64,000 nt of DNA, from NCBI GenBank assembly GCA_010093995.1, contig ML992505.1, forward strand, positions 411,433 through 475,432. The letters run 5' to 3'. Below are positions 6,163 to 40,700 of this stretch, in pieces. The number at the start of each line of letters is the position of its first letter. The stretch's first letter is position 1. The DNA comes from Elsinoe ampelina. Taxonomy: Eukaryota. A model generated the notes under the pieces. That model did no database searches. It saw only the letters and a program-made list of their open reading frames with translations, and was not told where the DNA came from. The translations under genes were made by a program, and so were the position numbers.

Positions 6163-6174
6163 GGTTATAAGCCC
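6163..6174 (+). promoter_or_regulatory. Copia primer-binding site
   Basis: GGTTATAAGCCC (de-RIP GGTTATGAGCCC) abuts the 5' LTR and is the motif typical of fungal Copia PBSs. Confidence 0.75.
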
Positions 6175-6299
6175 GGAGCTTATAGCACTAGTATAGGATT
6201 GTATGTAAAGCAGTTAAGCATCTACTTTATTAAAATTAGGCCGGATTCCCTGGTATACTCCTCCGTATCCCCTTTATTATCCAATTCTAGACAGATTAG

Positions 6300-11040: not shown

Positions 11041-11072
11041 CTAATAGCTTACCTATAGGAGCTAAGTAGAAG

Positions 11073-11275
11073 TGTTAAGAATATAGCTCTCTCTAGATAG
11101 TTAGGCTAGGAAGTTACATAACCTGTAGTTATATAATACTAAGGCCTAGGGATTCATAAGCTGTTCTTTCTTCTAGTAGATAGACTTCTTAATTAATCAA
11201 CTCGTCTATCACCTAACTAGTGTGCGGATTAGTTCTATATAATACTCTACCCCTAAACGTGCCTTCCGCTTAATA
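11073..11275 (+). repeat. Copia 3' LTR
   Basis: Direct repeat of 5960-6162, followed by TSD GTAGA. Confidence 0.95.
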
Positions 11276-14200: not shown

Positions 14201-15663
14201 TGTACATTTCTAGAGCGATATATAATATGCCTTTCCTTATAGTTCGCTATAAGAGCTAAAGGTAAGGCTACTATATTATTATATAGCACTTACGTCCTAA
14301 TACTTTATTTCGATAATTGTATATTAGTGATTATTACTAACTACCTTCTAAGGTTAGTTAATGTTACTACTAATTATAGAGAGCTCTTCTAGGTTAGGTT
14401 TCTAGTCTAGCTATTTCGTTAGTTACCTACGCTTAGATAGCTTATATAGGAACTAACTAGATCCCTGCTTATCTAACAAGTGAATATAACAAGAGTTATT
14501 ATAATATACTATCTATAATAGCGTTGCATGTTAGCTTTATTATTTACTATTAGTCGTAGAGATATTAAGTATAATATTCGGAGAGAATTCTATTACCTCT
14601 TAAGTTGTTATAGACTTCTTCTATATTTCCTTACCTATACTAAAGGTCGTTAGGTCTTCTATAGTAGTATTAGCCTTTTTTTCTACTAGCCTAGCAACTA
14701 TTATATATAATCTATCGGCTAGCGCCCCTTATTAGTAGTCCCTAGCCCGATACCTAAGTCTTTTACACTTAAAATATAGATTGTCTTATCTATACTTCTC
14801 TCTCTCTTTTCTACTAAGGAACTTTCCTCTATAGCCGTAGCCTTATACCTATAAGAGGCAGCCTTCGTATATAGTATTAAGTTCTATAGGGTCTCTATAG
14901 TTTCGGGAGGAACGCGTATATCTAGTATTTACCTTATATTCTCTATAACGTTCTATATGTCGTTTATAGAGTTAGTTATTAATAGTAATTATAGTATCTA
15001 CTAGTTCTTAGAGGCTATTAGGTAGCTCGAGTATTATTTAGTCTTTAACTAAGTCGCTTAGTCCTTAGTAGAATACTAAATGTTTAGTACTATTATTCTA
15101 GTCTAGGTATATTATAAGTTATTAGAACTAGGAATAGTACTAGGCTATAGACCTACGTTGTTATAGTTATTAGATCTTTATCGTAGTAACGTACTCCTTA
15201 TTAGATATGTTAAAGACTTACTTAATCTTTGCCTAGAAGATACTAAAGCTCTTAAAGATAGCCTTTATATCTAGGCCTAGTTATCTATCTAGGTAGCTAC
15301 TTATATAAGGCTCGAACTACCCGAAGGTAGCGCCTTTTAGGTATATCCCGGCATAGAGGACCTTTACTACGTTATTAGCGTACTTATCTCTCTCTAGGGT
15401 AAAGAAGGCTTTAAGTTAAACAAGAAAGCGCCTTAAGTAAGCGTAGTCCCCGTAGAAGAGTTCTACCTCTAACTTAGGCTTACTCTATTCTTCCCTTATA
15501 CTAAGAGACCTTCTATGTTTACCCGAGGTTAAACTAGTAGTAGATATATCGTTAATAGTAAGCTTTCCTAGCTTACTAGTAATTAAAGATACTAATAGTA
15601 ACTTAGAGTAAGAGTTACTTATTAACCTTATAGCGTGCTATACTATAGTAAGGGTAGTTAAAA

Positions 15664-16117
15664 TGTTATAAACCGTCTAAATATAGTCTACGCTAGTAGT
15701 CTAAGCTAAGCTAAGAACGAGGTAGTTCTACTTCTATAGTAGTATAGTACTAAGGTAAGAGTTAGAGAAGATATATCTTATAGATAATAAAGTACAATTA
15801 GATAGTATTATAAAGGCTAGCCTTAGCAATACTAGTGTTCACTATCTAGACAAGGTTAACTATAGTACTTATATAAGGTAAGGACTATTCCTATATATAT
15901 ATATTCTTTACTATATACTCTATATACTCTATAGCGAGAGTTAGGAGCAATATAGAGTATACGTCTACTAGTAACCTACGCGCTCTATAGTTTTAGAGGT
16001 AGAGCCGCTAGAGAAGATAGAGAACTAGGTAAACGTTAGGCTAGGTTACGTAATAACCTTAGTAGTTTAATTAGTCCTAACGTCCCTACGCTCTAGCTAT
16101 CCTACTAGTTCGTAACA
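15664..16117 (-). repeat. Gypsy 5' LTR (454 bp)
   Basis: Begins TGTTA and ends GTTCGTAACA, followed by TSD ATTAC. Confidence 0.95.
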
Positions 16118-16289
16118 ATTACTAGCTATATAATAAGGAGTAGAAGACTATAAGAATACTCTATAAGAATCTATTAGCTACTCTTAATTTATAGATTAAA
16201 AAAATTTTAATAGTGTAGAACTAGAAAGCTACTAAAACTATAGTCTAATTTTTCTAACTTAAGGTTAATCTATTTATTCTTATCTATAT

Positions 16290-18499: not shown

Positions 18500-18568
18500 T
18501 AAGACCTCTCCTCTATAATACTATAAGAATAGACTATAAGAAATAGGTAGGTTTATTTTTATATAGAC

Positions 18569-18595
18569 CGTCACGAAATCCCTAAGCGTAGGGAG
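18569..18595 (+). repeat. Left TIR of the Plavaka element
   Basis: Inverted match to 42347-42373. Confidence 0.9.
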
Positions 18596-18651
18596 TTAGA
18601 ATATTAAGTTTCCCCGTGTTAGACTAAGTTTAACTACGTTAGGTCGCTGCA

Positions 18652-18738
18652 AACGCATTCTACCTACCTAAATTTAGTTCAACGCACCCCTACCTACTTG
18701 AATTCAGTTTAACGCACTAAACCTACCTTAATTCAGTT
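18652..18738 (+). repeat. Three ~29-30 bp subterminal tandem repeats
   Basis: AACGCA..CTACCTAC.T.AATT.AGTT unit repeated three times just inside the left TIR. Confidence 0.8.
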
Positions 18739-18859
18739 AAAGGCGTTAGCGAGATTAAGCATAGAAGCGCTTTTATAAGGGCATAAAAGTAGACATTTCC
18801 TGCTTAGTTCTCTACCTTCTAACATAAGTAATAGACTAAACTAAAATAACCTTGTTTTA

Positions 18860-20420
18860 TTATACTCTACTATCTCTGCTCTACTACTAAGGGGCTTAGT
18901 GTCGTTAGCTACAAGCAGTTTCGTACGACTATCTAGCTAGGGACTAAGCTTATTCGCAACGAGAAGTAGCTCTATATAGCTGTCGCCTATAAGTTCTGCT
19001 ACCTAGCAACCCGTATCGTTACTAGTGTAGAGGACCCTTACGGAGTAGTATTCCTAAGCTAGGGTCGTAAATGTAAAGTAGCGTTCCTAGAAAAGGAGTT
19101 CGTTATAATAGCTAAGGCTAGGTATAAGATAGAGTACGCATACCTTTAGGTCTGTTCTAGTAGCTATTAGTCTATAGTAGTTACGTAGGAGAAGAACAAC
19201 GACGGAAGCTAGATATACTACGTTAATAGCGGCCGTAGTAGCGAGGTTAAGGCCTACTCTAAGAAGATTAATACTAACATAGACAGGTATAAGAGATGTA
19301 GTAGATATCTAGTTTAGGTTAAGCTAACTTCTTTTAGGTCGACTAACACCGACTAGTACACCTACTAGAAGACGCACTTTAGGGCCGCTAAAGAGTAGCT
19401 TTAGAAGTAAGGCCTAATAGATCTCGGTATACTCTCGGAGTAGCCTAGAAGGTAGTACTAGGGACATCTACCCTCTATTAAGGGGAGCTACCTTATCCTT
19501 ATACTGCTCCCTCGATTGCCTTACTACACGATATAGCCGGCAAGAAGGTAACTACTAATAACTATAGGCTTCTTCCCCTCTCTCTCCTTAACCTCCTCCT
19601 AGCTTAATACTAGCGTTAGCCCTCGCCTTACTAGCCTGTCTAGTGCTAGTTCCGGCAATTAGAGAAGTAAAGGAAGCGGCGCCTAGGTTAAGCTTACCGC
19701 TCTTAAATGTAGTACTATATATTAAAGACAAGGCTACCTTAAAGCGCACTAATCTCCCTAGCGTAACTCGCTATAAGGTTGTACCTATAGTAGATAAGGC
19801 AGCGGTAGTAGCTTCCGCGGAGGACGTAGTAGTAGTAGCTTTAGCTATAGTATACCTCCCTATAGCGGAGGGCGCGGATAAGGGCAGGGGGGAGGAGAGA
19901 AATATCCCTTATACAGAGGCAGGTATAATAATACTTTCTTTTACTATATCTCGCCGCTCTACTACAACTACTACTAAGTAGTAGTAGTAGTAGAGCTAGT
20001 AATAGTACGTATAAGAATAATCTAGTTTATAATCTTATAGACAGGATCTGTCGCATATATTATACACTAATAATCTTATAAGTAAATACTTACGATCTAC
20101 GTAGATATAGAGGAGGCTTTAGGGGACAAGGAAGAGGCTACTTACTATACTAACGAAGATAACGCCTAAGTTTTCCCTCCTCCTAGGCTTAAGTAGCTCT
20201 ATACCTATGTCACGTAGCTACTTATAGTTATAGTTATATACTATGTTGTCCCCTACTCCCTAGAAGGCGTTAAGTAGGAACTCTCTAGCGTTGTTACTCT
20301 CTATAGGAGTAAGTCTTTCTTCGATAAGCTTCCTGTAGCTAGAATAGATATTAAAATTAATAAGCATCTTTCGGAGAGAGTCTTATAAGCTAGTCTCATC
20401 GGGGGACTTATAATAGAGAA
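18860..20420 (+). pseudogene. RIP-degraded unknown cargo gene convergent with the transposase
   Basis: Long protein-like plus-strand frame with GT-AG intron-like interruptions (about 19287-19338 and about 20000-20044) and an Ala/Pro/Gln-rich region. The ORF-track hit 19643-19981 is a surviving piece of it. Confidence 0.45.
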
Positions 20421-20779
20421 GGAGTAAACCTCTTAGATTGCTAACCTAAGTCTATCTACGAAACTGACCTAATAACTACTTATTTACCTACACTTTTCAC
20501 CGCCGTTGCAAAATATATATAGGATACTTAAACTTCTTAAAGGCTAAGAGACATCTACAACGCCTCGCTATAATTTCCTAAGCTATTGTAATTAGCATAG
20601 GGGTAAACTAGCCCTTTAACGGGAGATTGTTATAAGGCGTCTTATGCCGCCTACTATATATAGTTCAGCGACTAACCTAATGACATATAGGTGTAAACTA
20701 ACTAGCTAGGGTAATACCTACGGATATTATCTTATCCTTTTTACCTAACATAGTTTAGTAGTTGACCTAAGCGTACCTA

Positions 20780-23700
20780 AGGCGAGGCGGTCGACGTAAG
20801 AGACAACTATTCTAGCTACGGAAGAAGTGCTTAAGCTTCGTTAATACCTCTTACGCTTACTAACTACGCCTAGGGATCTTAGCCTCTCTCGTTTAGAAGC
20901 CTTAGCTAGGTAGAGCTACTTAGACTCCTACGACTTATTCTATAGTATGTTATATGTGTTAAAGTCGGCTATATTATTAATGTATATCTAGCTATTCGGC
21001 CTTATCTTATCTACTAGCACGACGTAGATACTATAGTAGATTTACGAAGTAGAGTAGACACGCCTACTAGTAAGTGCGTTCCGTCTAGCTCTGTCACATC
21101 GATTTGTCTAAGGCTTAATTAGTGTTATACTATGCTCTCGATTAGCTACTCTATCCGGCCGAGTAGGCTAGTATAGATCTACTAGCGCTCCTGTGTAGTA
21201 TAGGCATTAACGTCGACCCGATCTACTAGACTAGAAGCTATCCTCTATAGTTATTATAAACACAATTCGAGCTAGTAACTTACCTTAGAGGCTATCGGGT
21301 AATGCTCCGATAGTGCCTTTATTATTCGTTGTCTATTCTTGTACCTAGAGCTAGTCTCGCCTCTTATTGCTACGTATCTCTTGCTATTTAGTTATACACT
21401 AGATAAAGTTTAGTTTATCTACATTAGAATTATTAGGATTACAGTCGGATAGCTTCCTACACTTTAAAGAATAGTAGAACTTAACGCGGAGGTCGCTAAC
21501 CTAGGAAGAATTTAGTTTAAGTCTATCGGGATCTAGTTCGGCATTAAACTAATTAGGGTGTTTAGTTATTAAGCTAGAGCCTATATTAGCTATACCTTAA
21601 CGAGCCTCGCGGACAAACACCGCTATTACTTGCTATAATAATAGCCTAGGTAGCATGTTAATAAGCGCCTTTAGTTCTCTAACTATACGCTATATAGCTC
21701 CCCCCTTAGCACTAGGCTAGCTAAACTAAGAAGTAACATTAACTATATTACTTACGCCAACCGGCGTACTTTAGATCTTAATTAGTTTAGTAGCCGATAG
21801 CCTAACTAACTTCGAGGGGTTATCGAATGCCGCTAATATATTTACTAGTTTAGTGTTATAAGTAGTAACCTAGTCTTCCTATCCGGCCTTCTTATTTGTA
21901 AGTTTAAAGGCGTCCTTAATAAAGCAGACATAGTTATGCTCTAAATAATTAGAATCGAGGCTAGTAACTACTCTAAAATCATAGATAGCCTTTAAAAAAT
22001 GTATTATTAAGTGCTATTTCGGAAAGTTAAAGTTACTCTCTTCTTTCTTGTCGCTATAGTAGGCCCGGAAGGTCTCTTTATACTTGTTTATTCTAAAGAG
22101 CGCAAGGTTAATATACTAAAGTATATTGTCGTTATAGGTCTTATAGTTTGCTAGTAATATAAAGTCGACTAGTGCGCGTATAAATTTAATAGCTTAAGGC
22201 GCCTTAACTTTCTCGAGTAACAGTATAAATACTAGAAGTATCTAGCGTATAATACTCTTCTACTCTTGACCTGTCTATTGCTTAATAGCCGAGTAGTGTA
22301 GGAAGTGTTAGATGCTAGGAAACACTAGTATACTATTAAAGCGCTTATCGATGATATTAAGTACAATCTCCTTTGCCGAGCGCTAGTAGCCTATTCGCTA
22401 CATAGTCTCTCTAGCCCTTATATACCGTAGTAATTTATATGTAGGTATTAAATCCTAGAGCAATTTTCGAATCTAGCGTAGGACGTGTATTAAAACGCCT
22501 TTAAGAAGTTAGTGTAGAATATCTAGCACTATTACGTAGTAAATATTAGTACACGGAAGATCCTACGTAAAGTAACTAACCTTATAAACCTAAGAGCTTA
22601 TATCTAGCTTTTCGCTCTACTACTAACTCTCGCGTGCCTCTCTCTATAAGCGCTATTATTGCTGCGTAAAGTAGTAAGTTCGGAATAGTGTAGTAACTAC
22701 TAGGTCCTCTCTCTCGTCTTTGCTAATAAGGCAGCTTATATAATAATATAGTAACTTTATACCTGTTATAGTGACCTATTTAGCGTAATCCGTAGGTATA
22801 GTAGCAAGTATAGGGAAGCACCTCCGCCTCTTTCTATCCGTATAGGAGATTGTTTCGCTTCCTCTCGAGTAGTAATCGACAACGGGGTTAAAGATTTTCT
22901 TTATATAAGCGTAGTAGGTCTTCTCCTTAACGACATTTCTACTGTCTTTAATAATAGAAAGTAAGCCGATTAGTAACTACCTCGGCTAGTTGTTGCTATT
23001 ACATGCTTCTACCTTTAGGTTGCCTAATAATAGATAGATAGCATATGCTACAAGATTCCCTTAATAGTTTATTACCTAGGTCTAATCACTCGCGACGATT
23101 AATGGGATAATAGTAGCTCTAGCTATCCTAAGTCGCTCTTGTGCGTCCTACTACTAGTTGCTACTTACTATTTTAGTGTATACTTGTCGTAGCGGCTTAC
23201 TCTCGATAGCTTCTATAAAGACTCTATATAGGCTATAGTCTATGTCTACTACGAAGCTACGATAACTAAGCAAGAAGCGTATTGCTAGGAGGATATTTAG
23301 ATACTAGAACGTATGTCTTTTAGGCCTACAATTAGTGTTTAGTATAAAGCTCAAGGTCTACTAGCCATTAATGCCTCCGGCTACATCTAAATTTTCTATC
23401 TTCTCTACTAGTTCATTCGTAGTTCGCTAACTAAGGCTCTCTACTAGAGGTTATATACGTAGGTCTTTAAGCAATTACGTAATTACGGCTTTACTAAGTT
23501 TTTCCTTAACGAGCTACTAGGCAAGACTAGCGTCTATACTATTAATAAAGGCTTCCTTTAGTTAAGTATCGCCTAACTAATTATAATTTAGTTCATTATA
23601 TATGTTAGTACACATGTTATGCACTTAAGGAGATCTAGACAACGTTAGTCGATATAGACTAAGCATAAACTATGTCTATTACTAACTCTTCGCTACTAGC

Positions 23701-24378
23701 CGGTATACTAGTAACTGTCTCGAACGTAATACAATCGGATATAGCTCTACTAGACAAGGACAATCTCCTAGCACTCTACCCCGTAGATGTACTACTAGTT
23801 GTGCTTACTATAATTACTTACTCTTCCTCGTGTATGCCTTCTCTTATAACCTCTTCCGTGCCCTTCTCTTTCTTATATACGATGTAGCCGAGCCTACTAC
23901 TACTATCGCTGTCTACTCTACGTGCTAGGGGATAATAGTCAAGGTCGGTAAAGAGACTAAGGGGATTGTCCGCCGTAGTATACTATATAGTAGGCAAAGG
24001 GGGGAGGACACTCTATGCTAACTATAGACTATTATCTCTACCTCGTTATTTAGTTCGGTTCTTAGTCCTTATAGTTAGCGGCGGAGTTAAGTAGACTACT
24101 AGGTTATTTAGCGTCGGCGGATTATGCTATATATTGCTACTAATGCTACGTTATTAGTCTTTATTAGACAGTAAGCACTCTCCCTTATTAGAGAAGAGAG
24201 AGTTATTACTAGCGTTGTCTTCGCGGAGATATCTATTAGTATATTAATCTAGTAAGACTTACGCCTTGTTACTTATTAGCAGCTCTCTCCTCTAGTAATA
24301 TAGTAGATGTTAGACAAGGCCTCTACTAGATTATATAATCTTTCTATAGGCCGAGCATTTAGTAATACGCTTTAGCAT
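20780..24378 (-). pseudogene. Plavaka transposase (RIP-inactivated)
   Basis: ATG at 24378 followed by a C2H2-like CSACGK....GLVQHL. De-RIP motifs RVYTEMASGDWWWDAQ (about 23140-23190), IIPLIVASDQTQ...G...AYAIYLSLGNL (about 23020-23112) and CADGKRRRCFPILAAMPADYAEQ...TGIK (about 22755-22845). Further motifs are PDILHQLLKGV (about 22495-22530), QWTGQEQK (about 22258-22282) and FNFPK.H (about 22010-22035). Confidence 0.9.
23658..24125. repeat. ~470-bp direct repeat, copy 1 (inside the transposase N-terminal region)
   Basis: Readily alignable at nucleotide level with 31006-31470. Confidence 0.92.
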
Positions 24379-24559
24379 GTTAGTTCTTGTCGCTTAATAT
24401 TTGTATTTATAGTTAGAATTAGCGCTTTAGATTTGTAACGATAGTAGGAAGTAAGACGTTTAGGCGCTACATTATGTTAGTTTACCTAAAAGATAGTTTA
24501 ACATGCACTAGCACCTAAATCGGTCTACTAAACTAAGGAATTATATTCTTAGGTAATAC

Positions 24560-27500
24560 AGTTAGGCTATTTATCTAGCAATATTAATCATTTCTCTAGA
24601 TTAACTATATCCTTCTTTGCTATAGCTCGTATACGTGTCTATATCTTAGCCCTCTACTTCTCTATTTCTTCGTAGATAACTTTCTATACTATTAATAGCC
24701 TACCCTGTCTACTATTAAGCCACTTCTAAGGCCTATAGAATAGAGCTATTAGCTTTATTATAAACGCCTCTATGTAGTTAGCCTTCTAAGACTTAATGTT
24801 CCTATAGACCCGGGCGAGACACTAGAGAACTAATTACAGCACCGACGCTATGTTAAGCAAGATTATAGTGTCGAAGCGGTTAAGGTTTAGACTAGTCTTA
24901 ATCGCCCTACCCTAAGCAATTAGAATCCTTGAACCTTTCGGCCTTAGGGGCTTAATAAACATGTCGTTAGACATAGCTATGTCGACGATGTCTATATAGG
25001 AAGGTATAGGTGTTATTCTATAGTAGATAACAACTACATTAGAATCCTTATCGATCCTAATTGCTTTGCTGTCTAGGTGCTACTCGAGCCATTTTAGATA
25101 CTATGCCCTTGTTAGCAATGACCTAATTAGACTAAATAGTCTAAACTAACCGTTATAGCGACTACTAGCACTAAAGGTATAAACGTATAGACAATTACTC
25201 GCCTCTTTAACTACTTCGAGTAGGAGACATTCTGCTTAATAATCTTAGAAATAACACTATAAAGGACTTATATCTAAGAACTAGCGTGAATCTTGTCTAT
25301 GTGCTACTATAACGCTGTTGCTAAGGAGTTATATATAATATTATAGGCATACTTAACAGTATAGTTGCTAAACTCCTCTTTAACCGTAGGGCTGTCCTAG
25401 AAGATATCTATAAGAGCAAGGAATATAGAGAAAAGCAGTAGCGGCGCAACTAGGCTTAGTATTTACTCCTTAGTCTTCTTATTAAGAATTGTCTCTAATG
25501 TAACTTCGGACTTATTAGGTTTATTCTTTTGCTTCTCGATCGCCTCCTATATACTCTTATCTATATCCTTTTTAATCTTCTTCTATGTAGCTATAAGACT
25601 ATAAAGATACTTATCCTTAATAGTAATCTCTAGGTCGAATGTCGAATATAGTAGGACTCTAACTACTAGTAGACCGGGGGCAGCATTAAATAGTTTCTAG
25701 ACGTAGTCTACGTTTATCTTAATAAGAATTTTAGTAAGAATATAGCTCTATTTAGTAACTGTTATAGAGATCTCTACTATAAACTCTATACTCCCCTTTT
25801 TGTTAAACTTACTAGGGTCGTTATTCGCCTTATACTATTTGTCAATTACGTAGGCATAGTCTAATGCCTCTTAGAAGTTAAGCTTGTTAGTAATAGCTCG
25901 TTAAGTAGCATCTAGTCCTTTCTTCGGCCTTGCTCGAACTAGGTTGTCCTTAGACTTAGTTAGCTCCTAACTAGATTTATAGATGTAGGTGTTAATATAT
26001 TGTCCTATTCCTTTTCTATTTTTAAGCTTCTCTAACCTAAAGTCCTTATACATAGTAGCTGTTAAGAACGCTACTACGTTTAAGCACTTAACAAATAGCG
26101 TCCTGCTTATACCTAGTATAAAAGGCCTCCCCGGCAGTATTCCTAGATAGGACTAGGTCTACGTCTTCTAGCTAGTAACCTAGTAGAACTTATCGAAGAT
26201 GACAGCGGCCTAATAGATAGGGATAGCCCCCTTCTTCCTCTTAGCTCCCTTAGGAACAAAGTCCTAGTTATTAGTATCTACGTTGTCTTCGCCGAGAAAG
26301 CGGTTAATTATAGTATTACGAGTAGTAAAGAAGAACTAATTATTTATCTATACTTTCTTAGGGTGCTTATTACGTATGTCAACGAGGTCTATAACTCTAA
26401 TAGTGTTAATAGGCTTACTAGTCTTTCGATCTTTTAGCTAAGTCTCTTATTTATAGTAGCCTTTAGGTAGATCCTCTTCGCGAACTAAAGAGTCTATGTT
26501 ATATGCGTTGCTATACTCTGTCTTTTACACTTCTTTGTTTAAATTTCCCTAGTATAGGACGATCTTTGCCTTAGGCATAAACTTACATGTCTCTCGCGCC
26601 TACTATTTTATTACGTTTAATCCTCTAAGAATTAGATTGTAGCTAATAGTATCGGTAGAACTAATAGTTAGCTATAGGTCGTCGACAAGTATCGTTGTCT
26701 TCTAGTACTTGCTCTATTACTCCTCGGATATAGTAGCGTATCTACAATCCTTTAGCACCTCTTTATTTAAGAGTAAAAGGAAATAGAGCATAAAGAGGCC
26801 TATTAGAGTCTTTCTAAATTCTATCTTATATATAAACATAAATGCTAGGTAGCCTTCGAGGTACTTCTTAATTACGATAAGCGCTAAGTATATCTATGCT
26901 GCCTCGACTAGATACTTCTTGTTCTAATGCTAATAAAATACACTAGTGTTCGGTAAGTAAATGTCTTTCTTAAAGCCTATAAAGTCGTAGCCTCTTTCCT
27001 AGAACTCTTCGGACTAGTAATCGATTCTAGTACCTGCGGGGATAAAGCTCTAGTAGGCTAGATTATTACTAGTTTACTCGTCGTTATTGTTGTTAATAGT
27101 ATAAAGTTTAACAAAGTCTGAGCTACTAAGGGTCTTATTAAATGTGCATTTTACTAGTGCTAGTATAGATATAGATAGCTCCTTAGGGACTAGCGGAATA
27201 TAGTATCTAGCTAACTCTTTGCTTAGTATAACTATAAAGGGATATTTATCTATGTCTCGGCATTGCTTATAGTATTTGTCTTCTATTACTTAAGTAGGGC
27301 GCTACTCGACAGTAGGATTATTATTAGCTAGTAGTAGAGAGGTAATTCGCTTTTTAGGGGTAGAGTTACGCGGTAGTATAACCTTAGTTAGAGATAGAGG
27401 AGCTAGAGAATTATCTTCTTCTTTACCCTCGACTAGGGCTAATAGCTTCCAACTATTACGATACTAGAGGGGGTCGACTAAGTATGTTAGTAAACACCTA

Positions 27501-28566
27501 AGTTAAACTAAGTGTTAAACTTATAAAGTACTTTAGTAGGAAGTTTCTTAACGAGATCTATACTAGGCGTAAGATAGAAGAAGATTAGGTTAGAACCTTC
27601 CGTTAGGGAGTTAACATAGTTAATAATAGCAGCACGTAGGTTATAATTGTCAGTAATAGGGAGGATCTTATATAGCTCTATATAGTCTATCTATACAAGT
27701 ATAATGTTATTACTAATTAATTTCTTCTCCTTTAGAAATAGCTTAATTTTGTTAAGGCTATATACATTTAGATTGTAAGTGTCCTTATCTCGTCGATAGT
27801 ACTATAGACTTAACGCCTATAAACGACACAAATATTCTCTTTTTATAATTATGCCCGAACTAACGTCTAAATACTTAACACTTATAAACTTAATAATAGT
27901 TTTATCAATAATACTCTAGACTAGACAGGACATGTCTTCTAGCATTTACTACTAATACATAGGCTAACTAGTGCAGCTATTAAGACCTATGCCTGCAAGT
28001 CCGCTGCCGAGTATAGAAGTCTCTAATCTTTTAGAGAGTCCGCTATTAGACTAGGTAGCGGAGTAGCACTTTCTAATCTACTTCTTAGGATATGCTCTCT
28101 TGTCTGCTTTAGTCTAGTTCTTCTCGTTCCTAAGCTCTTACGCCTTAATGCTAAGGATAAAATCCTTAATGATATTATAGCTAGATATATCGTTTATAAC
28201 GCTAACGTTCTTCTTAAACTAGTCTTAATCTTAATAGTTTAGTCTCTCGAAGAAGATCTCCGTATAGCCTTACTAAGAGTCCTATAGGTTATTCTTAATG
28301 TTAATTATAATTGTAGCTATATTAGCGTTACTAGTCTAAGGTTTCTTATAATCTAATTCGAAAGACGTATAGGTATCCTTATATAGTTCCTATGCCCTTA
28401 CGCGTGCGGCGGTGTATATATCGTTATCCTAGTTAAAGAATTTAAGGAAGAATACCTTAAGCTTAATATTCTAATCGAGCTATACTTAAATATCTATAGG
28501 AGATCTCTTATAGAGCGGAATTTCGCTTGTGGCCTAGCTAGCGCTATTAGGCTAATTCTTAGACAT
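24560..28566 (-). pseudogene. SNF2/SF2 helicase-like ATPase relic, copy A
   Basis: ATG at 28566. De-RIP Walker A HEMGFGKT (about 26807-26832). C-terminal helicase motifs RVIVYTF.P, RILIAQG.AIETGLNL..FDTIILLD and QCLARVHR (about 24800-25200). Several intron-like GT..CTAAC..AG segments. Confidence 0.75.
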
Positions 28567-29389
28567 ATTACGTGCGTTTGTAAGCTTAGTATATACTATA
28601 AATAAGGCTTTAAATAATGTCTAGTAAATAGATTAAGTAGGTGCGATAGATGTTAAGTAAGAGATCTTACGAAGGTATAGCATATTTATAAGTTTAAAAG
28701 AATTAAGAAGAGGATTTATTAACATAGCAGGTCTATACACTTTGTAATATATGTCTAACTAAGACTTAACTAAAAGAAGAGATATCCTATTTAAGAGCAC
28801 TTAAAATAGAAGTTAAAGAGGTTAAAGAAGTGCTAAAGAACTGTATAAGTTACTTGTTTATAGCTAAGAGAGAGTAAACAAAGATAAATAATAGTAATAA
28901 GTAAGAAGAGTAGTGACCTAAATTTAGTCGATTTAGGTCGGGCCCCGAACTAAGCACGTAGGTAGTATACTAGATATAGCACACACGTAACAGTAGATAA
29001 CTTAGTTTAGACACTAAACTAATAGTAACTATAGTCCGTGTACTTAGTTACCTTTCGTTTTACATAATGTGTAAACTAAGAATACTACTATTATTATTAG
29101 GCACTTAACGTAAATAGATTAAACTATATTTTGGCAGCGGAACTAAATTTATATACGAGGCATAAATAGAATATAATTAGACAGCATATAGCGGAATAAG
29201 AGACATAGCATAGCTTATAGACGCTAGTAAAGGAACAAAGAAAGTTATATACTACTATCTAATTGTCTAAACTTTATAATTGCTATATACGGAGCTAAGA
29301 GGTAAAGTAGAGTAATAGCTATATATTCCGCGTAATAAGCAATTAATAGTATATTCTACAAAATTATATATGCGCTTTATTCCTCGCCT

Positions 29390-30339
29390 AGCCCTACTAT
29401 AGAGGCAACAGCGAAGGAGGACGCTATAGGTATAGCTCCGCCTAAGACGCCTTCTACTATAAGCTTATAGCTCGAAGGAGATAGTAGGCGTACCCTTACC
29501 TACGATATGCTTCTATATTTCTCCCTTTATTACACTAGTTATAACTCTACTATCCTGTCCTAAACATTCTTGTCTTATAAGGCAGGTACTCTCTAGTAGA
29601 CACCTTCTTCTCTATTCTCTTTATATACGCTAGAACCCCTAATAGTATAGTTAGTAGCGTAGGAGAGCACTCTACGATAGATTCGTTTAGTTGTAGCTAC
29701 TAGGCGGAGACAGTATTAGATTCTACCGATACTACGCAGCTGGTGTAGAGGATACTATAGAGGAAGATAGAGACGGCGAAAGAGAGAGAGCTATTAAAAT
29801 CTCCTACGTACGTAGAAGCCTATATCGGCATAGTCGGCAAGATAGGGAGGTATATTAACATAGCTTTGCTTAGGTATAACTACCAGGTGGAGACGTTATT
29901 TAATCCTACTAATACTACGCTACTAGTGTAGAGAATATAGTAGGGGGCAGTAGTAATGTCGAGAGGGAAGGAGGTGTCGAGGTCTCTCTACGCACGCTTA
30001 GGTCTATAGCGGCGTAGTTGGCATAATAGAGAGGTACACTAGAATAGATTTACTTAGGTGTAACTATAAGGTAGAGACGTTGTTTAATCCTACTAACACT
30101 ACACTACTAGTATAGAGAATGCTAATAGAGGCAGTAGCGGCGGCGAGAGAGAAGTTAATATTTAAGTCGTTATTATAGATATAACAACGGATAATTATAG
30201 TGCACTAGGCGGGGGCGTCGCTATAATAGCTAGCCGGCTATTGTTAAGCTCGGATAGAGGGGAGAGCAGAGGTCACGCTAGTAACACTAACGCCTACGTT
30301 TAGGTTAGTATAGGCGGAGGAGGCGAACTAAGGCGTCAT
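29390..30339 (-). pseudogene. Unknown gene built from a tandemly repeated exon+intron unit, copy A
   Basis: ATG at 30339. Three related ~180-bp units are separated by intron-like GTAAAT/GCAAAG...ATAG segments. Nucleotide-level paralog at about 36630-37584. Confidence 0.6.
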
Positions 30340-31005
30340 TGTAAGTCGTATCTATAATGAAACTATGTCGCTACGTACATGGTGTACGACGTATTTATAA
30401 TGCTATAGAGATTGCTAGTCTCTAAACGAGAAGACACTTTAGAGAGGACTAAAACTAGACAGTATTACGTAAGCGTACTTCGGTTTGCTTAGTCGCCCAT
30501 AGCTGAAATTTAGGTCATTCTTAAACTTCGAAAGAGCGGACTAACAACTTATTAGTTCGACGTAATAAACTACTAGCCCTCCCTACCGGCCGACACTTAC
30601 CGCTGCTAAATATAACAAGCTAGAGAGAGTAAAGCAATAATTAGCCCTACTAAATTCTAGCCGACCGAGATTCCTACTAGTAAGCTATGTTTTATAGTTG
30701 TTTAGACTACTATATACTTCGCATGTGCAATTTAAATACATCTTTAGCACCCTTAGGTAGTAGTATCGTAGTTAAAGCGCTATATATAGGGCTAGTAGTT
30801 CGCTGCAAGTGTATCCTACTAGAAGTTCCTATACTATAACGACCCTCTCGAGTGTAATTTATGCGTTTAGTAGCTTACTATTTATTAGACATCGGAGCGT
30901 CGAACTAAGATTAAAGTACCTAGCTAAAAGCTATATCTTGTCGATTACTTAGGCTAGAGAATGTGTCTTGTGCGTAGGAGACCTAGACAATATTAGTCTA
31001 CGCGA

Positions 31006-31470
31006 ACTAAGCATAAACTATCTATTACTAACTCTTCGCTGCCGGCCGGTATACTAGTAGCTATCTTAAACGTGGTATAATCGGATATAGCTCTACTAGA
31101 CGAGGACAATCTCCTAGCACTCTGCCCTATAGATATACTACTAGTTGTGCTCGCTGTAATTACTTACTCTTCCTTATGTATACCTTCTCTTATAACCTCT
31201 TCTGTGCTCTCCTCTTCCTTATGCGCGACGTAGTTAAGCCTACTGCCACTATTACTATCTACTCTACGTGCTAGAGGATAATAGTCAAGGTCGGCAAAGA
31301 GACTAAGGGGATTATCTAGTGTGTTATACTATGTAGTAGGCAAAGGAGAGAGGACACTCTACGCTAACTATAGACTATCGTCTCTACCTCGTTACTTAGT
31401 TTAATTCTTAGTCCTTATAGTTCGCAGTGGAGCCGAACAAACTAAGTTGTTAGATAGCGTCGACGGATTA
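31006..31470. repeat. ~470-bp direct repeat, copy 2
   Basis: Aligns with 23658-24125, but the flanks differ from the transposase. Confidence 0.92.
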
Positions 31471-31999
31471 TAGCTAAAATTATATCCTCGCTATAGTACT
31501 AGACCTATTATAACAGGGTTTGCTCTAGTACATCTATACGACAGGGATTATTAACTAGCTCTCCGCTAATAATAATATTAGCTAATATGTTTAATTAGCT
31601 ATTGTCGCGCTATTATACTTAGCTAAGACTATTATAGCAATTATAGAGCAGGGGTGCTACGTAGGCCCTATTATTCTAGCTAGTAAATAATTTATAGTTC
31701 TTGCTGTATTATATCTCGACTTGTCGCCGGTAGTATATTAAGTTAGTTATAAATAGCCTCTACTAACAGAGAGTAAAGGGGGTAGATAAACCTGTTTCGG
31801 CCGCGTAACGTTAGGTGGTTTATACCTTTTAGGGGTAGGCAATTAGTTCGCTAAACTAAAACTTTAAATTTTAGGTGAAAAGTAGTACTAAGTTTCCCGT
31901 AACTATATTTAACAAGGGTAAACTAATAAAATAACCTTCGGTGATTCACTTTTTAGTTTAAACAACTATACTTAGTTTAATTGTCTACTTCGCTATATT

Positions 32000-34900
32000 A
32001 TTATATATAATATTCTATATTATCGTTAGTATACTATAGGTACTATTAAGCTACTTCTTTAACTGCGAGGATAGAGTAGTCGGTTTAAGCGTAAATATAT
32101 CTTTTATATCTACGTAGGTAGATATTATATTCTCTACTAACTATCGAAGGCCTAATAAACAGATCTATAAACCGAATTCCTATCGAGCAAGATTATAGTA
32201 TTAAGGCAGGAGCACTATTATTCTATTTATATTACTAGACTAAGCGTAATCTAAAGTTGCGAACTGACTAGTATAACCTCCTCGAAGTAAAATTAGTTAG
32301 ATATAGCTACTTCGATAATGTCTAGGCGTTTCTCTATTAGCGTCTTTCTATAGTAGACTATAACGACTTTAGTGCCCTTATTAATCCCGATTGCTTAGCT
32401 TCTTAGAAGTCTCTCGAGGCATCCCTAATACTCTACTCTAGTTAGTAATAACCGAACTAGACTACATAGGTCGAACTAACTATCGTAGCTACTACTAGTA
32501 CTATAGTCGTACATATATAGACGATAATTCGCTACTTTATAGTCTTTAACTCGCAGATGTTCTATTCTATAATCTCAGGAATAATAACATAAAGGACCTA
32601 TATTCCTAAGCTAGTATAGTGCTAGTATATATGCTTGTTTATCGCTTCTACCCTAGGTACATTTCGAAGAGAGCCTATAGAGCAATTGTCGAAGTTCCTA
32701 AGCCCTTCTATAATGTTAGCGAATTATATAGTTCCTTCTATACTAGCGGGGCGAATAGGTAAAGGAAGTAAGCTTATAACGACATTTAGCGTTTATACTA
32801 CTAAATTCTTTTTACTCTCTAAATAGATTACATCCTCGGACTACTCTTTCTTATACTATGTCTCTGTAACTGTAGTTTATATACTTACTCTTATACGCGG
32901 AGCGATTTGTGTCTATAGTGCTACTAAAGAAATAAGATGTTTATCCTCGATTAAAACTTTAAAGTTAGAGTTAGAAATATCTTATACCTAATAAGCCTTA
33001 GAAGTAGGCGTAGCTACTAGATGTTTCGTAATTAGGTTAAATTATATCGCGAGAGGAATATTTAAAAGTCTAGCTACCTATATAGGGACTAAAGCGAAGA
33101 TTTCGAACTAGAAGCAGAAAGCGGCTATCCCGTTTACGAAAAGGGGGCCCTAATAGGCTCTAGCTATCCTTGTATTACTATTGCATATATAGAGAGCTGC
33201 CTCTTATTATATTATATAGCAATCTCGAGTTAAATCGTATCTAGTTTATCCTCTCTTATTTCCTCCGATAGGTACGTCTTTGCTGTCTATAGCTAAAGAA
33301 TAGCTTCTACTATGTCGAAGCTGCCGTCGTTAACTAGTAGGCGTTTATATCTATTCCCTCGGGCTAATTAACCTTATACCAAATATTAAGCTTAATACTA
33401 TTTCTATACATGCGGTTAGTAGAGCTATACTAATGCCGAGTAGCAATTGTCTAACAGGGAGAGGCATAAGACAGTAGGGCATTAGGGTGTTTCTCCGGAG
33501 GACTTATTTAGCCTAATATAGAATAAATCTGTCCCTAGCTTAAGGCTAATCGAACTAAGTTAAGTTCGTAGTTAGTAGGGGAGGCGCGGCCTAACCTAAA
33601 GCAACTCTGCTATTTGTTAGGAGGTAGTAGCTAGCACTAATAATAGTCGATAAGGACTCTATACTATAATTAATTTCTAAGCATACTATGTATAAATCTC
33701 GCTAGCACTCGAGGGTGTAAAATATTAATAACATTAGTAGTAACGCCTCGGCGCTCCTTAACGGCACTATACTATTGTTATTTAATTTAGTTAACGCTAA
33801 GTTTAGCATAGACTAAGTCTTGTATAATTGCTCCTAGTATTGCTAGGGGAAGAGATTCTATCCTACTAACTTGTTCTACTTATTATTAAATGCCCTTATC
33901 TATTAAAAGCACTATAACATTACTTAGTCTCCCTTGTTAATAATATAAAGGAGATAATCTCCTCCTCGATATCGATGTTGTAGTAGTTAGTGCCCTATAG
34001 TATAATATTCTTAGATTTGCTCTCTCTACTTGCTTGTGTTATAGCGTGCCTAATAGAATATAGGAAGTTACTAGTTCGGAAGTGGAAGCTAGGAGAGACA
34101 TTAGAGAGCTCCGAGAGATTATGTTCGTCCGGATCGATAGCTAACTACAGGTGTATAATAGCTTCTAAGGTATTCTTAAAGTTGTAAAAGTAGTATAAGT
34201 ATAGGCAATACCTCGGCAGCCGACGCTACGTTCTAAACTAGCTATGTTCTTATAGCGAGAAAGTAGGGACTATATTCTCTTAAGCTGTGTAAACTAAGAC
34301 TCTATCCTAGACTAAGTTACTAGGTCGATTAAGATTTGTTAAACTATAGTCGGAGGACTATTAAGCAAATTTACCTCCGATAACAACGATAGGAATATTA
34401 TAGGCTTTATAGGGGCTATAGTCCCTTAGGGGCAGAATAAACTAAGAGAACTTTATTAGTTAAGAACTAAACTGTTTCGTGAATAATACAATAGCAAATG
34501 AAATATAATAACATTACTACTCTTGCCTTTAGCGTTTTTGTCGCTATTGTATATATTATGCATCTAGCATCTTAATGTCCTCTCTATGTTTCTCTCTATA
34601 CTAATCTCCTTTATACTCTTTTTCTATACTAATATCTACGAAGTAAAGCTTCTTAGAAGTAGTAAGCACTTCCGAGTCCTCTTCTATACTAGTCTCGACA
34701 ATAGGAGGTGCTTACTAACTACTACAATATTAATAAGAGTTGTCTATAAGTGTTAGTATATATAGACAAATAGTAAAGAGGTTAACTTACTTCGTATAAA
34801 GTTAGGAAGGTCTTTAATAGATGCTATAGAAGAGGTAAGATAGAGAAAGATCTCGTAGGTACCGGGGACAAGGGCTATAATATGCTTAGTAATAGCGGCG

Positions 34901-35850
34901 TCTAGATCGAAAGAGTCTTTAATAGCGAAGACCTATACGGAGTTATATAGATTAATCTAGTAGAGGCGGAGAAAATTACCTTTAAGATTAAGGATCTGCC
35001 TAAGTATGCTTATAAAGTACATAATGCAATAATTATTTTCCTTGCCGGGACTAGGTAACCTTAAGTTATAGATGCGAATATTCTTTCTCGATGTTAGGTA
35101 CGAGACAGATTCCGTTTTAATAACCTCTATAATCTAGATTATAGTAAATTTGATATTAATTTAGATACGATTAGACGCTAATGCCTAGTTAAAGCTTAAG
35201 ACTCTATAATAAGGCTATGTATACAAGTCTAATCTCCTGTCGCCTGTCTTTACACGAGCGGTATATCTCTCTAAGGATAGTGTTCTTACTTTAGAGAGTA
35301 TTAGCGTTTATATAGACGAGGTAGCTAAAGGATATAGACTCTAGGTGCCTCCTCTACCTAGTGAGGTTGTCCTCTCTCTTTTAAGCGACAGTAGAATACC
35401 TAACCTTATTAATTGCATAACATTTCGAAGCAATTGCTATATAGCCTTTATCTCGTCGATACTACTTATAGTCTATAAGTTCTCCGTGAACTAGTCTAGA
35501 TCTTTCCGATCTAGTCGGTTAACAAAGAGCTTTACATCCTATGCTATACTACCTAGTAGGTTAGTCTTAACTTTAAGGCGTATATTAAGTATATTCTTAT
35601 CGCGTAAATCTCTCCTATCTTGTTTCTCGATTTTGATACTATAATTAGTAAAGACTTTTAAGATTATTTCCTTTATCCTTACAAACGTAGTCTAGTACTT
35701 CTAGTTGTCCTATTTAAAGAAGAATTAGAGGGATTTCTTACTAATATTATTCTCTATAAGCGTATTTTTAACAATAGCTAGAGTAAGTTTGTTAAGTAGA
35801 ATCTTTTCTATAAGTCTAGGCGTATTAGTTAACTTCTTTGTTTTTAGCAT
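32000..35850 (-). pseudogene. SNF2/SF2 helicase-like relic, copy B (diverged paralog of copy A)
   Basis: ATG at 35850. Protein-level matches to copy A include WIDL...FAIKDSFDLDAAITKHI vs WIDC...LPITDDYDLRAAIINHV and RLDTIILLD vs RFDTIILLD. Introns sit at equivalent positions (about 34745-34790 vs 27478-27523; about 32425-32480 vs 25102-25150). Confidence 0.65.
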
Positions 35851-36629
35851 AGTACTAATATATGTATTTAATGTTTGTAAGAATATCGACTAGTAGAGAC
35901 GCTATATAGAACAGGTAAACTTAGAGGGGTCGAGATTATATAGCTAGGAGCTAAGGATAGTAAGGTAAGCACTATAGAGCAATCGGCAGTAATAATATAT
36001 ACCTATTATTCGATATAGATTTAAAATACTAAGTGGAAAGTAAATAACAAGTTCTTTAATTAGGTAAAGGTTATATCTAATATAATATACCGAAGTAGGT
36101 AGTTAAATTTGTAACTGAAAACTAGTTTAGGCCTCGACCTAAAGTAAACTAAGTTAATAGAGTCTATGTTTTATATATACTAATTATAGTATGTAATAGT
36201 AGGTAGTATTAGTTTAATACTAGAACTAAAAGGAACTAAGTTAGTTTATAACTAACAAATCTTACGCGGCATAAATTAGGTAAGTAAACAAAATATGTCT
36301 AACTAAAGGTATATAGTTAGCTATACTAAAGGCTTATATATCTCTCCCGCGTATGTCGGCGCTTTACGTAGAGTTATATATATCTAGAACATTTAGTAGA
36401 TGTATTAACAAAGAGTAGCATTATATAAAGCGACAATCTAAATGTCTTTATAGCGGACAATAGACAAAACAAACACTAAGGAACAAAGAGACGTATACTA
36501 TACTTAGATATAGTAGATAAGGAGATTTTGTTACTAGTTAGAGAAGGTAAATTAAAGTAATAAGCGTATAGTCCGCGTAGAAAGAAATACATTACTAACG
36601 CTAGGGAGTTACAATAATGCGCCATTAAT

Positions 36630-37584
36630 AACCTAGGCCTGCTATAAAGGCAACAGCGAAGAAGGACATAGCTAGTATAGCTCCGCCTACGATGCCTTCT
36701 ACTATAAGCTTATATCTAGTAGGAGGTAGTAGACGTAGTCTTACCTATAACGCGCCTCTATCCCTCCCCCTTTGTTACACTAGTTATAACTCTACTAACC
36801 TCTCCTAAACATTCTCGTCTTATAAGGCAGGTAATTCCTAGTAGACGCCTCCTTCTCTATCCTCTTTACATACGCTAGAACCCCTAATAGCGTAGTTAGT
36901 AGCGTAGGCGGACGCTCTATAATAGATTCGGTTAGTCGTAGCTACTAGGCAGAGATAGTATTAGATTTTACCGATACTACGCAGCTAGTGTAGAGAATAC
37001 TATAGAGAAAGGTAGAGACGGCAAAAGGGAGAGAGCTATCGAAATCTTCTACGTACGTAGAAGCCTATATCGGCGTAGTTAGCAAGATAGGGAGGTATAT
37101 TAATATAGCTTTACTTAGGTATAACTACTAGGTGGAGACGGTGTTTAATTCTACTAACACTACGCTATTAGTGTAGAGGATACTATAGGGGGCAGTAGTA
37201 ACGTCGAGAGAGAAGAAAGTATCGAGGTCTCCCTATGTATACTTAGGCACGCGGCGGCGTAGTTAGTATAATAGAGAGGTACACTACAATAGATTTACTT
37301 AGGTGTAACTACTAGGAGGAGACAGTGTTTAATTCTACTAACACTACGCTACCGGTATAGAGGATGCTAATAGAGGTAGTAGCAGCGGCGAGAGGGAAGT
37401 CGATATTAACGTCGCTATTGTAGATACGACAATAGATAATTATAGTACACTAGGCGGGGGCGTCGCTTTAATAGATAGTTAGCTATTGTTAAGGTCGGAT
37501 AGAGGGGAGAGCATAGGTTACACTAGTAATACTAACGTCTACGATTAGGTCGGTATAGGTAGAGAGTACAAACTAAGGCGTTAT
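36630..37584 (-). pseudogene. Unknown repeated-exon gene, copy B
   Basis: Clear nucleotide similarity to 29390-30339, including the internal tandem units. Confidence 0.65.
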
Positions 37585-37799
37585 TACGCATTGTATATGT
37601 AGTATAGCTCTATCGCTGCGGATTAAGCATGCAATATAAATATAGAGAGATAGAGTTAGGTACGTTAAACTTTAAAATTTTACAAGTTTTAGTTTAGGCT
37701 AACTAATTATAACTAAGTAACACTTAGGTATATACCCCTTACAAACTAAGACTTACAACTTCTAAGGCTAATCTATCTTAAGCGACACTCCTACCTAAC

Positions 37800-40700
37800 T
37801 ACTAACTATACTGCCGCTTCCCTCTCTCCTCTCTACTCTCCTCGGCCGTACTTATATCTACTTCTTATTAACTAGTAATATACTTAATTAAAGCTATTAA
37901 GCAAGCTCTCGCCCTTGACAATAAAGGCTATAGAGACTTATATAGTCTCTTAGAGAATATTATAGTAAGTAAAGGCATAGTTAGAAGAATATTTAGGTCG
38001 ATTTCCGACAGGAGAAGACTAGAGAAGAAGGTACTTCTAGTAGCACTAGACAGTAATAACATCCGATACACGTTTCGGCATATAACGGAGCTATTAGAGA
38101 GCGGCGACAGTTAAGCTACCTTCCGTGCTCTTGCCTATAAGATAAGTACGAACTTTAGACATTAGTAGGTATAGTTACACTTAAGATTATATAAGCCTAG
38201 AGGGATATAGAACAATACTAACACGCCTACCTCGATTAAATCCTCGGATCGCTAATTGCAATTATAAGCGCCTTTGCTCTCTAATCGATTAGACGACATA
38301 CTATTAGTAGTTCGTAAGGATAGAGAGATATACCCTGTCTACTCGATTAGAGATCTTCTACTTACACGTCGTAAAGCTATAGTTGACATGTTTAAAGAGG
38401 ACGTAGATATCGAGTTTAATTAGCTAAGAGTAATATCAATTATAACGGACCACTATATATATAACAGGCAAAGCGATGTAATAGGGTAGAAGGACAATAG
38501 AACGCTACATTTCGCTACGATAGAGAATGCTATTTAGTTTAAGGCTATTATCTTGTCTAAGATATTACACAGTTCGCCCCTGTGTATCCTAATAAGGCGA
38601 CGAGATTAAGGGAAGCATCCGGCGGAGACAAGCATAAAGCATAACAGTCTAGTAGTAGACTAAGTCGAACTAAAACATAGCGGGTAAGCTCCGCTAAGCC
38701 GTACCTACTACTAAACCCCGAGGATTTAGTTTAACTAGCACGCTTTATTCTTCCTTACCTTCTAACTAGATCGACCTATAGAATTATTCGTATAAGCTAT
38801 CTTTCTATAATTAATTTGTTTAGTCTAGTAGCATCCTTATATAAGGCTCCTAAGTATAGATATTAACTACACTAACCTTGTTTCTTTAGCGGCTAACATC
38901 TAGACTATAGAATTAAGTACGTAGGCTTCTCTTATTTGTTTAGGTGTAGAAGCATAGTCTTCCGACAGTCTACCTAACTAGTCCGGGCCTTAGCTTAGAA
39001 GCTCTCTACTAGACATATAAGGAGAAGAGTATAATTACGTTAGTAGCTAGTAAAAGTAATATAGGACTCAGTAGCCTAAATAGCTTAATAGATAGCAACT
39101 CTTAGAGGAAGACATTGCACTTATATAGTAGAAGGTAGGCTAATTACGAATAATAACGGAGGAAAACGCTAGCGCGATTAGATAACTATAGCGAGAGAAC
39201 TTTGTACTTAGAGAGTATATTAGTAAAGCTTTTCGGGGGTTTAGCGTTGCCTCTACGGACCTTACTAGGGAGTTTAGGGGCTTATTTAGATTAGACAAGG
39301 GTACACGGCGCTACACTAATAGTGCTACTCTACTATTACTAAGTATAGTTACTAATAGCTAATTAACGCCCGCCCCTTGTAGTAACATAATTAGTAGACA
39401 ATAAGTATCTCTATCTAGCGTACTCTATTCGGATATACTAGACTACGAGGTAGAGAGCAATTAGTGCTTTTAACACTTAGAAGACATTCTACTTGGTAAA
39501 GAAGGGGCTACTAGCGTAATTAGTAAGGGAGCTATAGTATAAATTGTGCTACCTATCTATATATAGAAGGGCTAATGCCTATAGTCTCTCGAATTAGTTT
39601 ATAATTGCTCGGTATAAGTTTAATCTACAATTTCTCTCTATAATATTCTACCTCTAGTGTTGCTTAACGTAACTATAAATGCCTTATTTAGTTTAAGTAT
39701 TTAGTCTAAGTAAGTTCGAGCATTTTTCTTTTTTAGTTTAGGTTCTAATAATTAGCACGCCGCGAGTTAGAACTAGCTATAAGTTTAATTTAATACCCTT
39801 ACTAGTTACAATTTCTATAGAGTATAGGCAGGTATAACTAGATTTAATTAGAAGAAAGTCGTGCACTCTAAACACCGAACTAAGCTATTATCTAACTTAA
39901 ACTAACGCTAAGTTACTATAACTCGCATAAGACAACTATTCCTGTTATAGCATACATTATTAGGGCCCGTCGTGCTAAACTCTCTTATACCTATATACCT
40001 CTTAACTAAAACGATTAGGATAAGTAATGTCCTAGTTACGTCGGCGTTAGTATAGCTTAGGCTACAAGGCTAATAATTATTACAAAGATAACAATTTAAG
40101 TTAGGTAAACTAGGACAAAGAAGAGTATAGCTTTATTAGTAAGAAGAGCTAGGCTAACTACGTAGGCCGTAAATACAATATCGAAGACAAAGGAGAAGGC
40201 ATAGATCGGACATCGCTACGCTTAATCTAAGATTAAGGGAGCTATAAGCCGATAAGAATAGCCTAGTATTAGCCTCTATGCCGGTTTAGTTAGTAAAACA
40301 ACATTTATAGGACGTACTAAACAAGTATAGTAACATCTTCGCGGCGGTATAAGACAAATTATGTATAAGTATAGCTATTAGGCAGAATTATAATACAATG
40401 TTACTAACGTTAAGTAATCGATAGCTCCTTATACGAATTATAAGGCACTAGCGCTCGATCTATAAGTAGCTACTAGTGGCTTATCTATAGAGGACAATAG
40501 GCAAATACCCTTCTATAATTATAGCTAGTAAAGTATATTACTTGCTAAAGTTAATTACTTACTAATAACGTCTAGCTCCGAGAGGTGCTCTGCTATAGTC
40601 GTAATAATATTACATAATCGGTAAGCGAGATACTCTAGCGCGAATAGCTTACATAAGAGCTAGAGGATAGCGAGCTACCGAATTAGGCACGTAAGCTACT

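Follow-up and report, generated by a model that had tools for sequence, protein, structure and literature searches.

Does a cut-and-paste transposon carry a chromatin-remodelling motor of its own? This question is raised by a 64,000-nucleotide stretch of the ascomycete Elsinoe ampelina (GCA_010093995.1, contig ML992505.1, positions 411,433 to 475,432; hereafter the window), in which two ATPase-like genes, designated A and B, lie within a Plavaka element. The original prediction, made from the window alone, was that these genes provide a remodelling or translocase function, possibly as an active enzyme paired with a pseudo-ATPase. We found that the ATPase cargo of the Plavaka element holds and that the active/pseudo pair does not. 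This ascomycete Plavaka lineage probably carries its own fast-evolving Snf2-family ATPase, encoded by gene A directly upstream of the transposase gene and co-oriented with it, and gene B is probably a relic.

The window element is a genuine cut-and-paste Plavaka transposon. An inverted-repeat search delimited a whole element of 23,805 bp (Table 1) with terminal inverted repeats (TIRs) of 30 bp and a target site duplication (TSD) within the 2–3 bp looked for. Both ends were located in 17 of the 20 copies fetched, and all 17 are flanked by a perfect 2-bp TSD, which is non-TA in six; a 3-bp TSD was found in none. The transposase matches the Plavaka transposase family PF18759 at about 23333–22479 (E = 1.3e-31; 110 bits against a cut-off of 26), has seven intact relatives that are 30–40% identical to it, and shows a transversion-only ratio of nonsynonymous to synonymous change (ω) of 0.28. 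Because of the TIRs, the TSD in 17 of 17 copies and the transposase-family match, we regard the element as real, as predicted. A search of the 28.3-Mb genome returned at least 26, 25 and 26 long matches to gene A, gene B and the right arm, respectively; these counts are lower bounds, and at least 26 copies have been killed by repeat-induced point mutation (RIP). The copies fall into two subfamilies, whose identity to the window copy is about 92% in one and about 80% in the other. Most end in CGTCA or CGTTA, and the CAT ends of three are explicable by CpG mutation. All examined copies are dead by RIP. AT-rich DNA bearing a strong RIP signature (TpA/ApT 1.7–2.4) makes up positions 1–43,200 of the window, the remainder being ordinary gene-rich fungal DNA, and polymorphic-site mutation among the copies amounts to 67% in the CpA context, 49% in CpG, 16% in CpC and 2% in CpT.

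The raw RIP-mutated frames of A, B, the right arm and the N-terminal exons matched no Pfam family, SNF2 and Helicase_C included; for this reason, the Snf2 assignment of A rests on sister copies and outside relatives. Seven superfamily 2 (SF2) motifs, including the Walker A GKT, the Walker B DExH and the motif VI arginines, were recovered for A from sister copies, colinear with those of ATPase genes at two metagenome loci, L099 and L100. The window itself reads YKIEFRKT at Walker A. Of the de-RIP sequence HEMGFGKT proposed for it, the H (CAT, one copy), E (GAG, one), first G (GGA, two) and second G (GGG, one) each survive among the 19 aligned copies, but the M was never seen, ATA being present in all 19 though compatible with RIP. 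Sister copies show GFGKT and DEFH, and the latter, a Walker B motif that the original prediction did not mention, is recoverable from GAT in four copies, GAG in one and CAC in one. The proposed motif V, GLNL, is RIP-compatible but was not observed (IKTSLNLN in 19/19), and for the proposed motif VI, QxxxRxxR, the arginines were recovered in the least mutated codons, which read xCLARVRR with x at the first position.

Gene A also kept its frame. The 42 stops in the exon 27439–25154 are all TAA or TAG, with no TGA; apart from the two intron junctions, frameshift-aware alignment of either subfamily revealed a single shift, at the end of the gene. Every indel separating the subfamilies either preserves the frame or is offset within 9 nt (P = 3e-7 when set against the rate for the ATPase half of B). 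An N-terminal domain of about 350 residues belongs to no known family, and the gene reaches about 350 codons further 5', to 28566, than originally drawn; the outer coordinates given for the pair fit, both genes lying on the minus strand with the start codon of B at 35850 and the end of A near 24585.

Relatives of A occur beside other Plavaka transposases. An alignment of the seven transposase relatives was used to retrieve nine metagenome Plavaka loci, of which L099 and L100 are the closest. At both, the transposase gene is immediately preceded by a co-oriented SF2 ATPase gene. The L099 ATPase matches Helicase_C (E = 1.6e-6); the matches of the L100 ATPase to ResIII (8e-4), SNF2-rel (2.6e-3) and Helicase_C (0.018) all fall short of the curated cut-offs. 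With these two loci left out of its construction, a RIP-aware profile of A aligned with L100 over about 940 residues with every motif in register (score 213; mean 51 and maximum 68 in 20 shuffles) and scored 118 with L099 (maximum 51 in 40 shuffles); A compared with the helicase genes of the two metagenome contigs gave z values of 24 and 15. The N-terminal half of A alone was not significantly similar to L100 (z 1.3). The L100 helicase had no match in the window's genome, and no viral contigs with transposase or helicase alignments were found. Gene A thus lies inside a unit moved by cut-and-paste, its frame and catalytic motifs were kept until RIP, and its relatives occupy the same position in two contigs.

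A profile of this ATPase family matched 25 host SNF2 proteins across motifs I–VI (probability 98.6, E = 5e-16). When the C-lobe profile was searched against the PDB, 54 of the 55 sequences at E ≤ 1 were Snf2-family by name, the best being ISWI (6e-4), and the best N-lobe match was INO80 (0.038). Judged from its sequence, gene A is a divergent Snf2-family ATPase.

Gene B has had a different history. A 7.3-kb tandem duplication, delimited by two direct repeats, contains A and B, each block comprising the transposase 5' exon, the ATPase gene and a 1-kb upstream segment. The duplication took place long ago, and A and B now differ by 150–167 transversions per kb. The flanking repeats have been homogenised: transversions per kb within the element against those between subfamilies are 21 and 29 vs 37 and 33 in one comparison and 40 and 13 vs 80 and 73 in the other. 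Parts of the repeats are therefore more alike within the element than between subfamilies, which points to gene conversion. One complete copy of 16,560 bp, with both TIRs and a TSD, lacks B, the crossover lying in the 1-kb repeat.

B was correctly predicted to be a diverged paralog with shared introns and no clear Walker A. It is paralogous to A along its full length (E = 2e-10, 2e-12, 3e-12 and 7e-8), and both intron positions are as in A; however, its matches to the middle, second exon and tail of A (the last three values) fall in three different frames. The Walker A position reads xYRSGRT or RIP derivatives, with K in none of the 19 copies, and the Walker B position reads [FL]I[LS][YC]-stop, with DE in none, so that catalytic residues are lost in 19/19. 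Frameshift-aware alignment revealed clear shifts, one of them at motif VI, where the preceding segment scores 72 bits and the following one 106 bits in different frames, and in neither subfamily is the frame continuous over both RecA lobes. A 46-codon middle segment is in a shifted frame in the window's subfamily, the ATPase half contains 17 non-triplet indels between subfamilies, and some frameshifts are common to both. In the one segment compared, B shows 97 transversions per kb vs 32 in A and evolved about three times faster. Against L100, B scored 49 and 54 with a shuffle mean of 50, indicating that no detectable similarity is left, whereas A keeps its own. RIP introduces no indels, and the decay of B therefore predates RIP; motifs and frame were lost before or during the split of the subfamilies. 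The most plausible interpretation of B is a duplicate ATPase gene that has decayed.

Alternatively, trimming may have left B as a functional N-terminal-only protein some 460 residues long, which could regulate A or the transposase, for instance by binding DNA or by acting as a dominant negative; this reading deserves serious attention although we lean against it. The first 1.4 kb of B contains three indels that separate the subfamilies, none of which breaks the frame, whereas 9.4 frame-breaking indels would be expected at the rate of the ATPase half (P = 8e-5), and the same N-terminal domain is present in A (the E = 2e-10 match). However, the transversion-only ω of B exon 1 is 0.77, which is not significant, indel rates may differ along the sequence, true stops are indistinguishable from RIP stops, and one element does without B altogether.

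Several observations weigh against a Plavaka lineage with an Snf2-family ATPase of its own. The ATPase was found at only two of the nine metagenome loci, and the expected co-occurrence with Plavaka transposases held to that extent; the seven loci without a match, three of which have less than 0.5 kb upstream, are those with more distant transposases. Element ends are not visible at L099 or L100, and the lightly RIP-mutated L100 helicase gene (1–3351) has GFGKG instead of GKT at Walker A. The nearly intact L100 protein found no relative in a word-indexed protein set, and the gene A profile had no match in the PDB, in the word-indexed set or by HMMER on 1.84 billion proteins. A host-SNF2 hidden Markov model on a simple de-RIP consensus of A reached only E = 0.39. 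Purifying selection on A is weak (transversion-only ω 0.61, p = 0.0016), in a test that is modest since non-coding control frames gave ω of 0.56–1.62; a raw codon-position test of transversions was uninformative.

The weak constraint, the seven loci without an ATPase and the published interpretation of a similar-looking repeat, X3X3R8, as an endogenous gene cluster (PMC3017866) would fit Pack-type capture of a host SNF2 gene that is carried as neutral cargo and plays no part in transposition. We consider this unlikely. In a quick tree restricted to the 17 host proteins (of the 25) in which both anchor motifs are present, A and L100 grouped together (Shimodaira–Hasegawa-like approximate likelihood ratio test, 97); their branch is very long and falls outside every one of these host proteins, a placement that carries a risk of long-branch attraction, and A fell into no named host Snf2 subfamily. 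Moreover, position and orientation are the same in L099 and L100 despite transposases that are only 30–40% identical, and the frame of A was kept across subfamilies.

The helicases of the fungal transposons AcademH and KolobokH are RecQ-like. That A is an unwinding SF2 helicase of this kind, not an Snf2-type translocase, appears quite improbable. Among the sub-threshold Pfam matches of L100, ResIII is slightly the best, and PF00176 reached 17.4 bits vs a cut-off of 24.9; the Snf2-specific blocks are degenerate, including that after motif III, and motif VI lacks the closing GQ. On the other hand, sequence and fold searches of the PDB put Snf2 remodellers first, the fold matches giving weak support because the C-lobe model is poor (predicted local distance difference test score, pLDDT, 45); a single-sequence fold of L100 was unusable (pLDDT 33). 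The atlas neighbours are SNF2/Helicase_C clusters, and the spacing between motifs III and IV is long, with 304 residues in A and 286 in L100 (172–495 in 11 host proteins), an elongation described as a hallmark of Snf2 proteins (PMC1616948).

Least probable of all is the pair in which B is a full-length, catalytically dead partner of A: its full-length outline with both introns, its presence in at least 25 of the 26 long A-bearing copies, the specific loss of Walker A and B residues and the chance that one apparent frameshift (34450–34240) is an intron (a search near 34450 resolved none) speak for it, but the differing frames around motif VI and in the 46-codon segment, the 17 indels and the fast evolution mean that a full-length pseudo-enzyme could not have been made, and, with a complete element lacking B, the pair is largely refuted by these sequences for the two subfamilies seen.

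Snf2 enzymes are described as translocating on duplex DNA and displacing bound proteins without unwinding (PMC1616948). By analogy, the Snf2-family ATPase encoded by gene A would be an ATP-driven double-stranded-DNA translocase rather than a strand-separating helicase. Most likely, it would clear the ends or promoter of the element of nucleosomes or silencing proteins; on a level with this, it could strip the transposase complex after strand transfer. The unique N-terminal domain would give specificity, and B would be a passenger relic, possibly still yielding an N-terminal-only protein. A broader proposal is doubtful, and we offer it tentatively: across a giant ascomycete Plavaka clade, a dedicated Snf2 translocase may be a standing part of transposition or anti-silencing, making these the first cut-and-paste elements with their own remodelling motor, with the duplicate pared down to an ATPase-less N-terminal regulator or targeter.

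Table 1. Features of the Plavaka element, in window coordinates
Feature	Position	Strand	Basis
Whole Plavaka TIR transposon	18569..42373	.	TIR pair; 2-bp TSD AC at 18567-18568 and 42374-42375
Left TIR, starts CGTCAC	18569..18598	+	Inverted repeat; end comparison among copies
Plavaka transposase, main coding part, RIP-inactivated, 3' end approximate	20780..23620	-	PF18759 match; 7 intact relatives; ω 0.28
Probable transposase 5' exon, first copy of 500-bp direct repeat	23628..24129	-	Direct repeat; translation like L099/L100 open reading frames
Gene A, predicted divergent Snf2-family ATPase, ~1,295 codons	24585..28566	-	Sister copies, outside relatives, profile matches
Gene A introns	27524-27478 and 25150-25101	-	Shared with gene B
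Gene A motifs	Walker A 26830-26807, Walker B 26194-26183, motif V 24902-24879, motif VI 24824-24801	-	19-copy alignment
1-kb direct repeat, first copy; apparent small divergent gene-like segment	29300..30340	+	Direct-repeat search
Duplicate of transposase 5' exon	30976..31476	-	Homogenised with first copy within each subfamily
Gene B, full-length paralog of A, start codon 35850	31950..35850	-	Shared introns; paralogy to A
Gene B introns	34790-34744 and 32480-32431	-	Both positions as in A
Gene B frame-conserved part	35850 to ~34450, first ~460 codons	-	Indel comparison between subfamilies
Gene B decayed ATPase half	Walker A position 34142-34122, Walker B position 33527-33504, motif VI frameshift near 32147	-	19-copy alignment; frameshift-aware alignment
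1-kb direct repeat, second copy	36545..37585	+	Direct-repeat search
Right-arm gene relic, without Pfam family	37870..38660	+	tblastn match to L102 open reading frame; ω 0.15
Right TIR	42344..42373	-	Inverted repeat; end comparison among copies

The element has further parts (Table 1). The right-arm gene matches an open reading frame (ORF) located directly downstream of a Plavaka transposase at another locus, L102 (2401–3252; tblastn E = 4e-5), and is under purifying selection (ω 0.15, p = 0.004); it is possibly a second conserved accessory gene. The translation of 23628–24129 resembles, by eye, the ORFs preceding the L099 and L100 transposases. Between subfamilies, the transposase segment 20800–23600 has diverged much less than other parts of the element, synonymous sites included (proportion of synonymous differences 0.029 vs 0.086 in A), which suggests exchange between subfamilies. 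The gene-like segment in the 1-kb repeats is divergent from each ATPase gene; one subfamily has two copies of its internal unit of about 183 nt and the other a single copy. One element copy sits in the terminal repeat of another in opposite orientation (C10 near 312790, L035/L036). We did not count insertion-site targeting as a finding: an AT-rich, RIP-like flank was present in 36 of 37 cases and TA made up 11 of the 17 TSDs, but spill-over of RIP and selection account for this just as well.

Elsewhere in the window, nested RIP-mutated long terminal repeat retrotransposons occupy 3792–16123, a Copia-type element (repeats 5951–6163 and 11065–11276; RVT_2, E = 1e-28) lying inside a Gypsy-type one (repeats 3792–4252 and 15671–16123). 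Just outside the RIP block, 43977–45257 (+) is an intact intron-containing gene with two ORF pieces that match no Pfam family; from its cysteine pattern, we take it to resemble a secreted LysM-type protein. Positions 49173–56045 (+) encode a myosin II heavy chain (Myosin_head, E = 2e-263).

Compared with the Snf2-family ATPases as surveyed in PMC1616948 (ISWI, Chd1, INO80, Rad54 and Mot1), A shares motifs I–VI, an Snf2-type motif Ia and the long III–IV spacer; it differs in its very long branch outside the host subfamilies, its degenerate family-specific blocks, the lack of a Pfam-detectable chromatin-reader domain and its unique N-terminal domain. The literature searches turned up no Plavaka element described as carrying an SNF2 gene. 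Among known elements, those most like the window element are PlavakaB DNA transposons of the CMCT clade (Kojima 2025, PMC12730594), which likewise have a PF18759 transposase, short TIRs, a 2-bp TSD and accessory genes beside the transposase. PlavakaB termini are given as 5'-CATCA..TGATG-3', a pattern to which the CGTCA of our element is close; the latter differs in being 23.8 kb long, residing in an ascomycete and carrying an Snf2-like ATPase instead of TET/JBP. The main text of that report contains no 'SNF2' and one unrelated 'helicase', and neither term occurs in the one supplement searched. A giant Plavaka of the red alga Bostrychia (10.1101/2025.02.11.637652) is 17–19 kb long and has three accessory genes proposed to act on its own chromatin; these are described as methylase/SET, ParB/2OG-oxygenase and one unknown, with no helicase, unlike in the window element.

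X3X3R8 of Parastagonospora nodorum (Hane and Oliver 2010, PMC3017866) is, like the window element, a RIP-mutated multicopy repeat, of 26 kb, and it is described as containing a tandemly duplicated Rad5/SNF2-like helicase with an incomplete second unit, a likeness by description only. It differs in having been read as an endogenous cluster with a ubiquitin-conjugating enzyme, and no transposase or TIR is reported for it; no ubiquitin-conjugating enzyme was found by Pfam on the RIP-mutated frames of the window element. The published cluster may be re-read as a transposon. AcademH and KolobokH (PMC10799480) are DDE-type fungal transposons with an SF2 helicase accessory gene, as in the window element, but belong to other transposase superfamilies, and their helicases are reported to be of DEAD/Helicase_C type, not Snf2-like.

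The dead-partner idea, the more surprising part of the original prediction, does not hold for the window element. An element-borne Snf2 motor, if confirmed, would provide a testable way into the movement of 20-kb cut-and-paste elements in fungi. Known transposon counter-silencing factors, namely TET/JBP (PMC12730594), SET/methylase (10.1101/2025.02.11.637652) and VANC, are described as altering DNA or histone marks or binding their own sequence; compared with these, such a motor would be a different, mechanical way into silenced chromatin.

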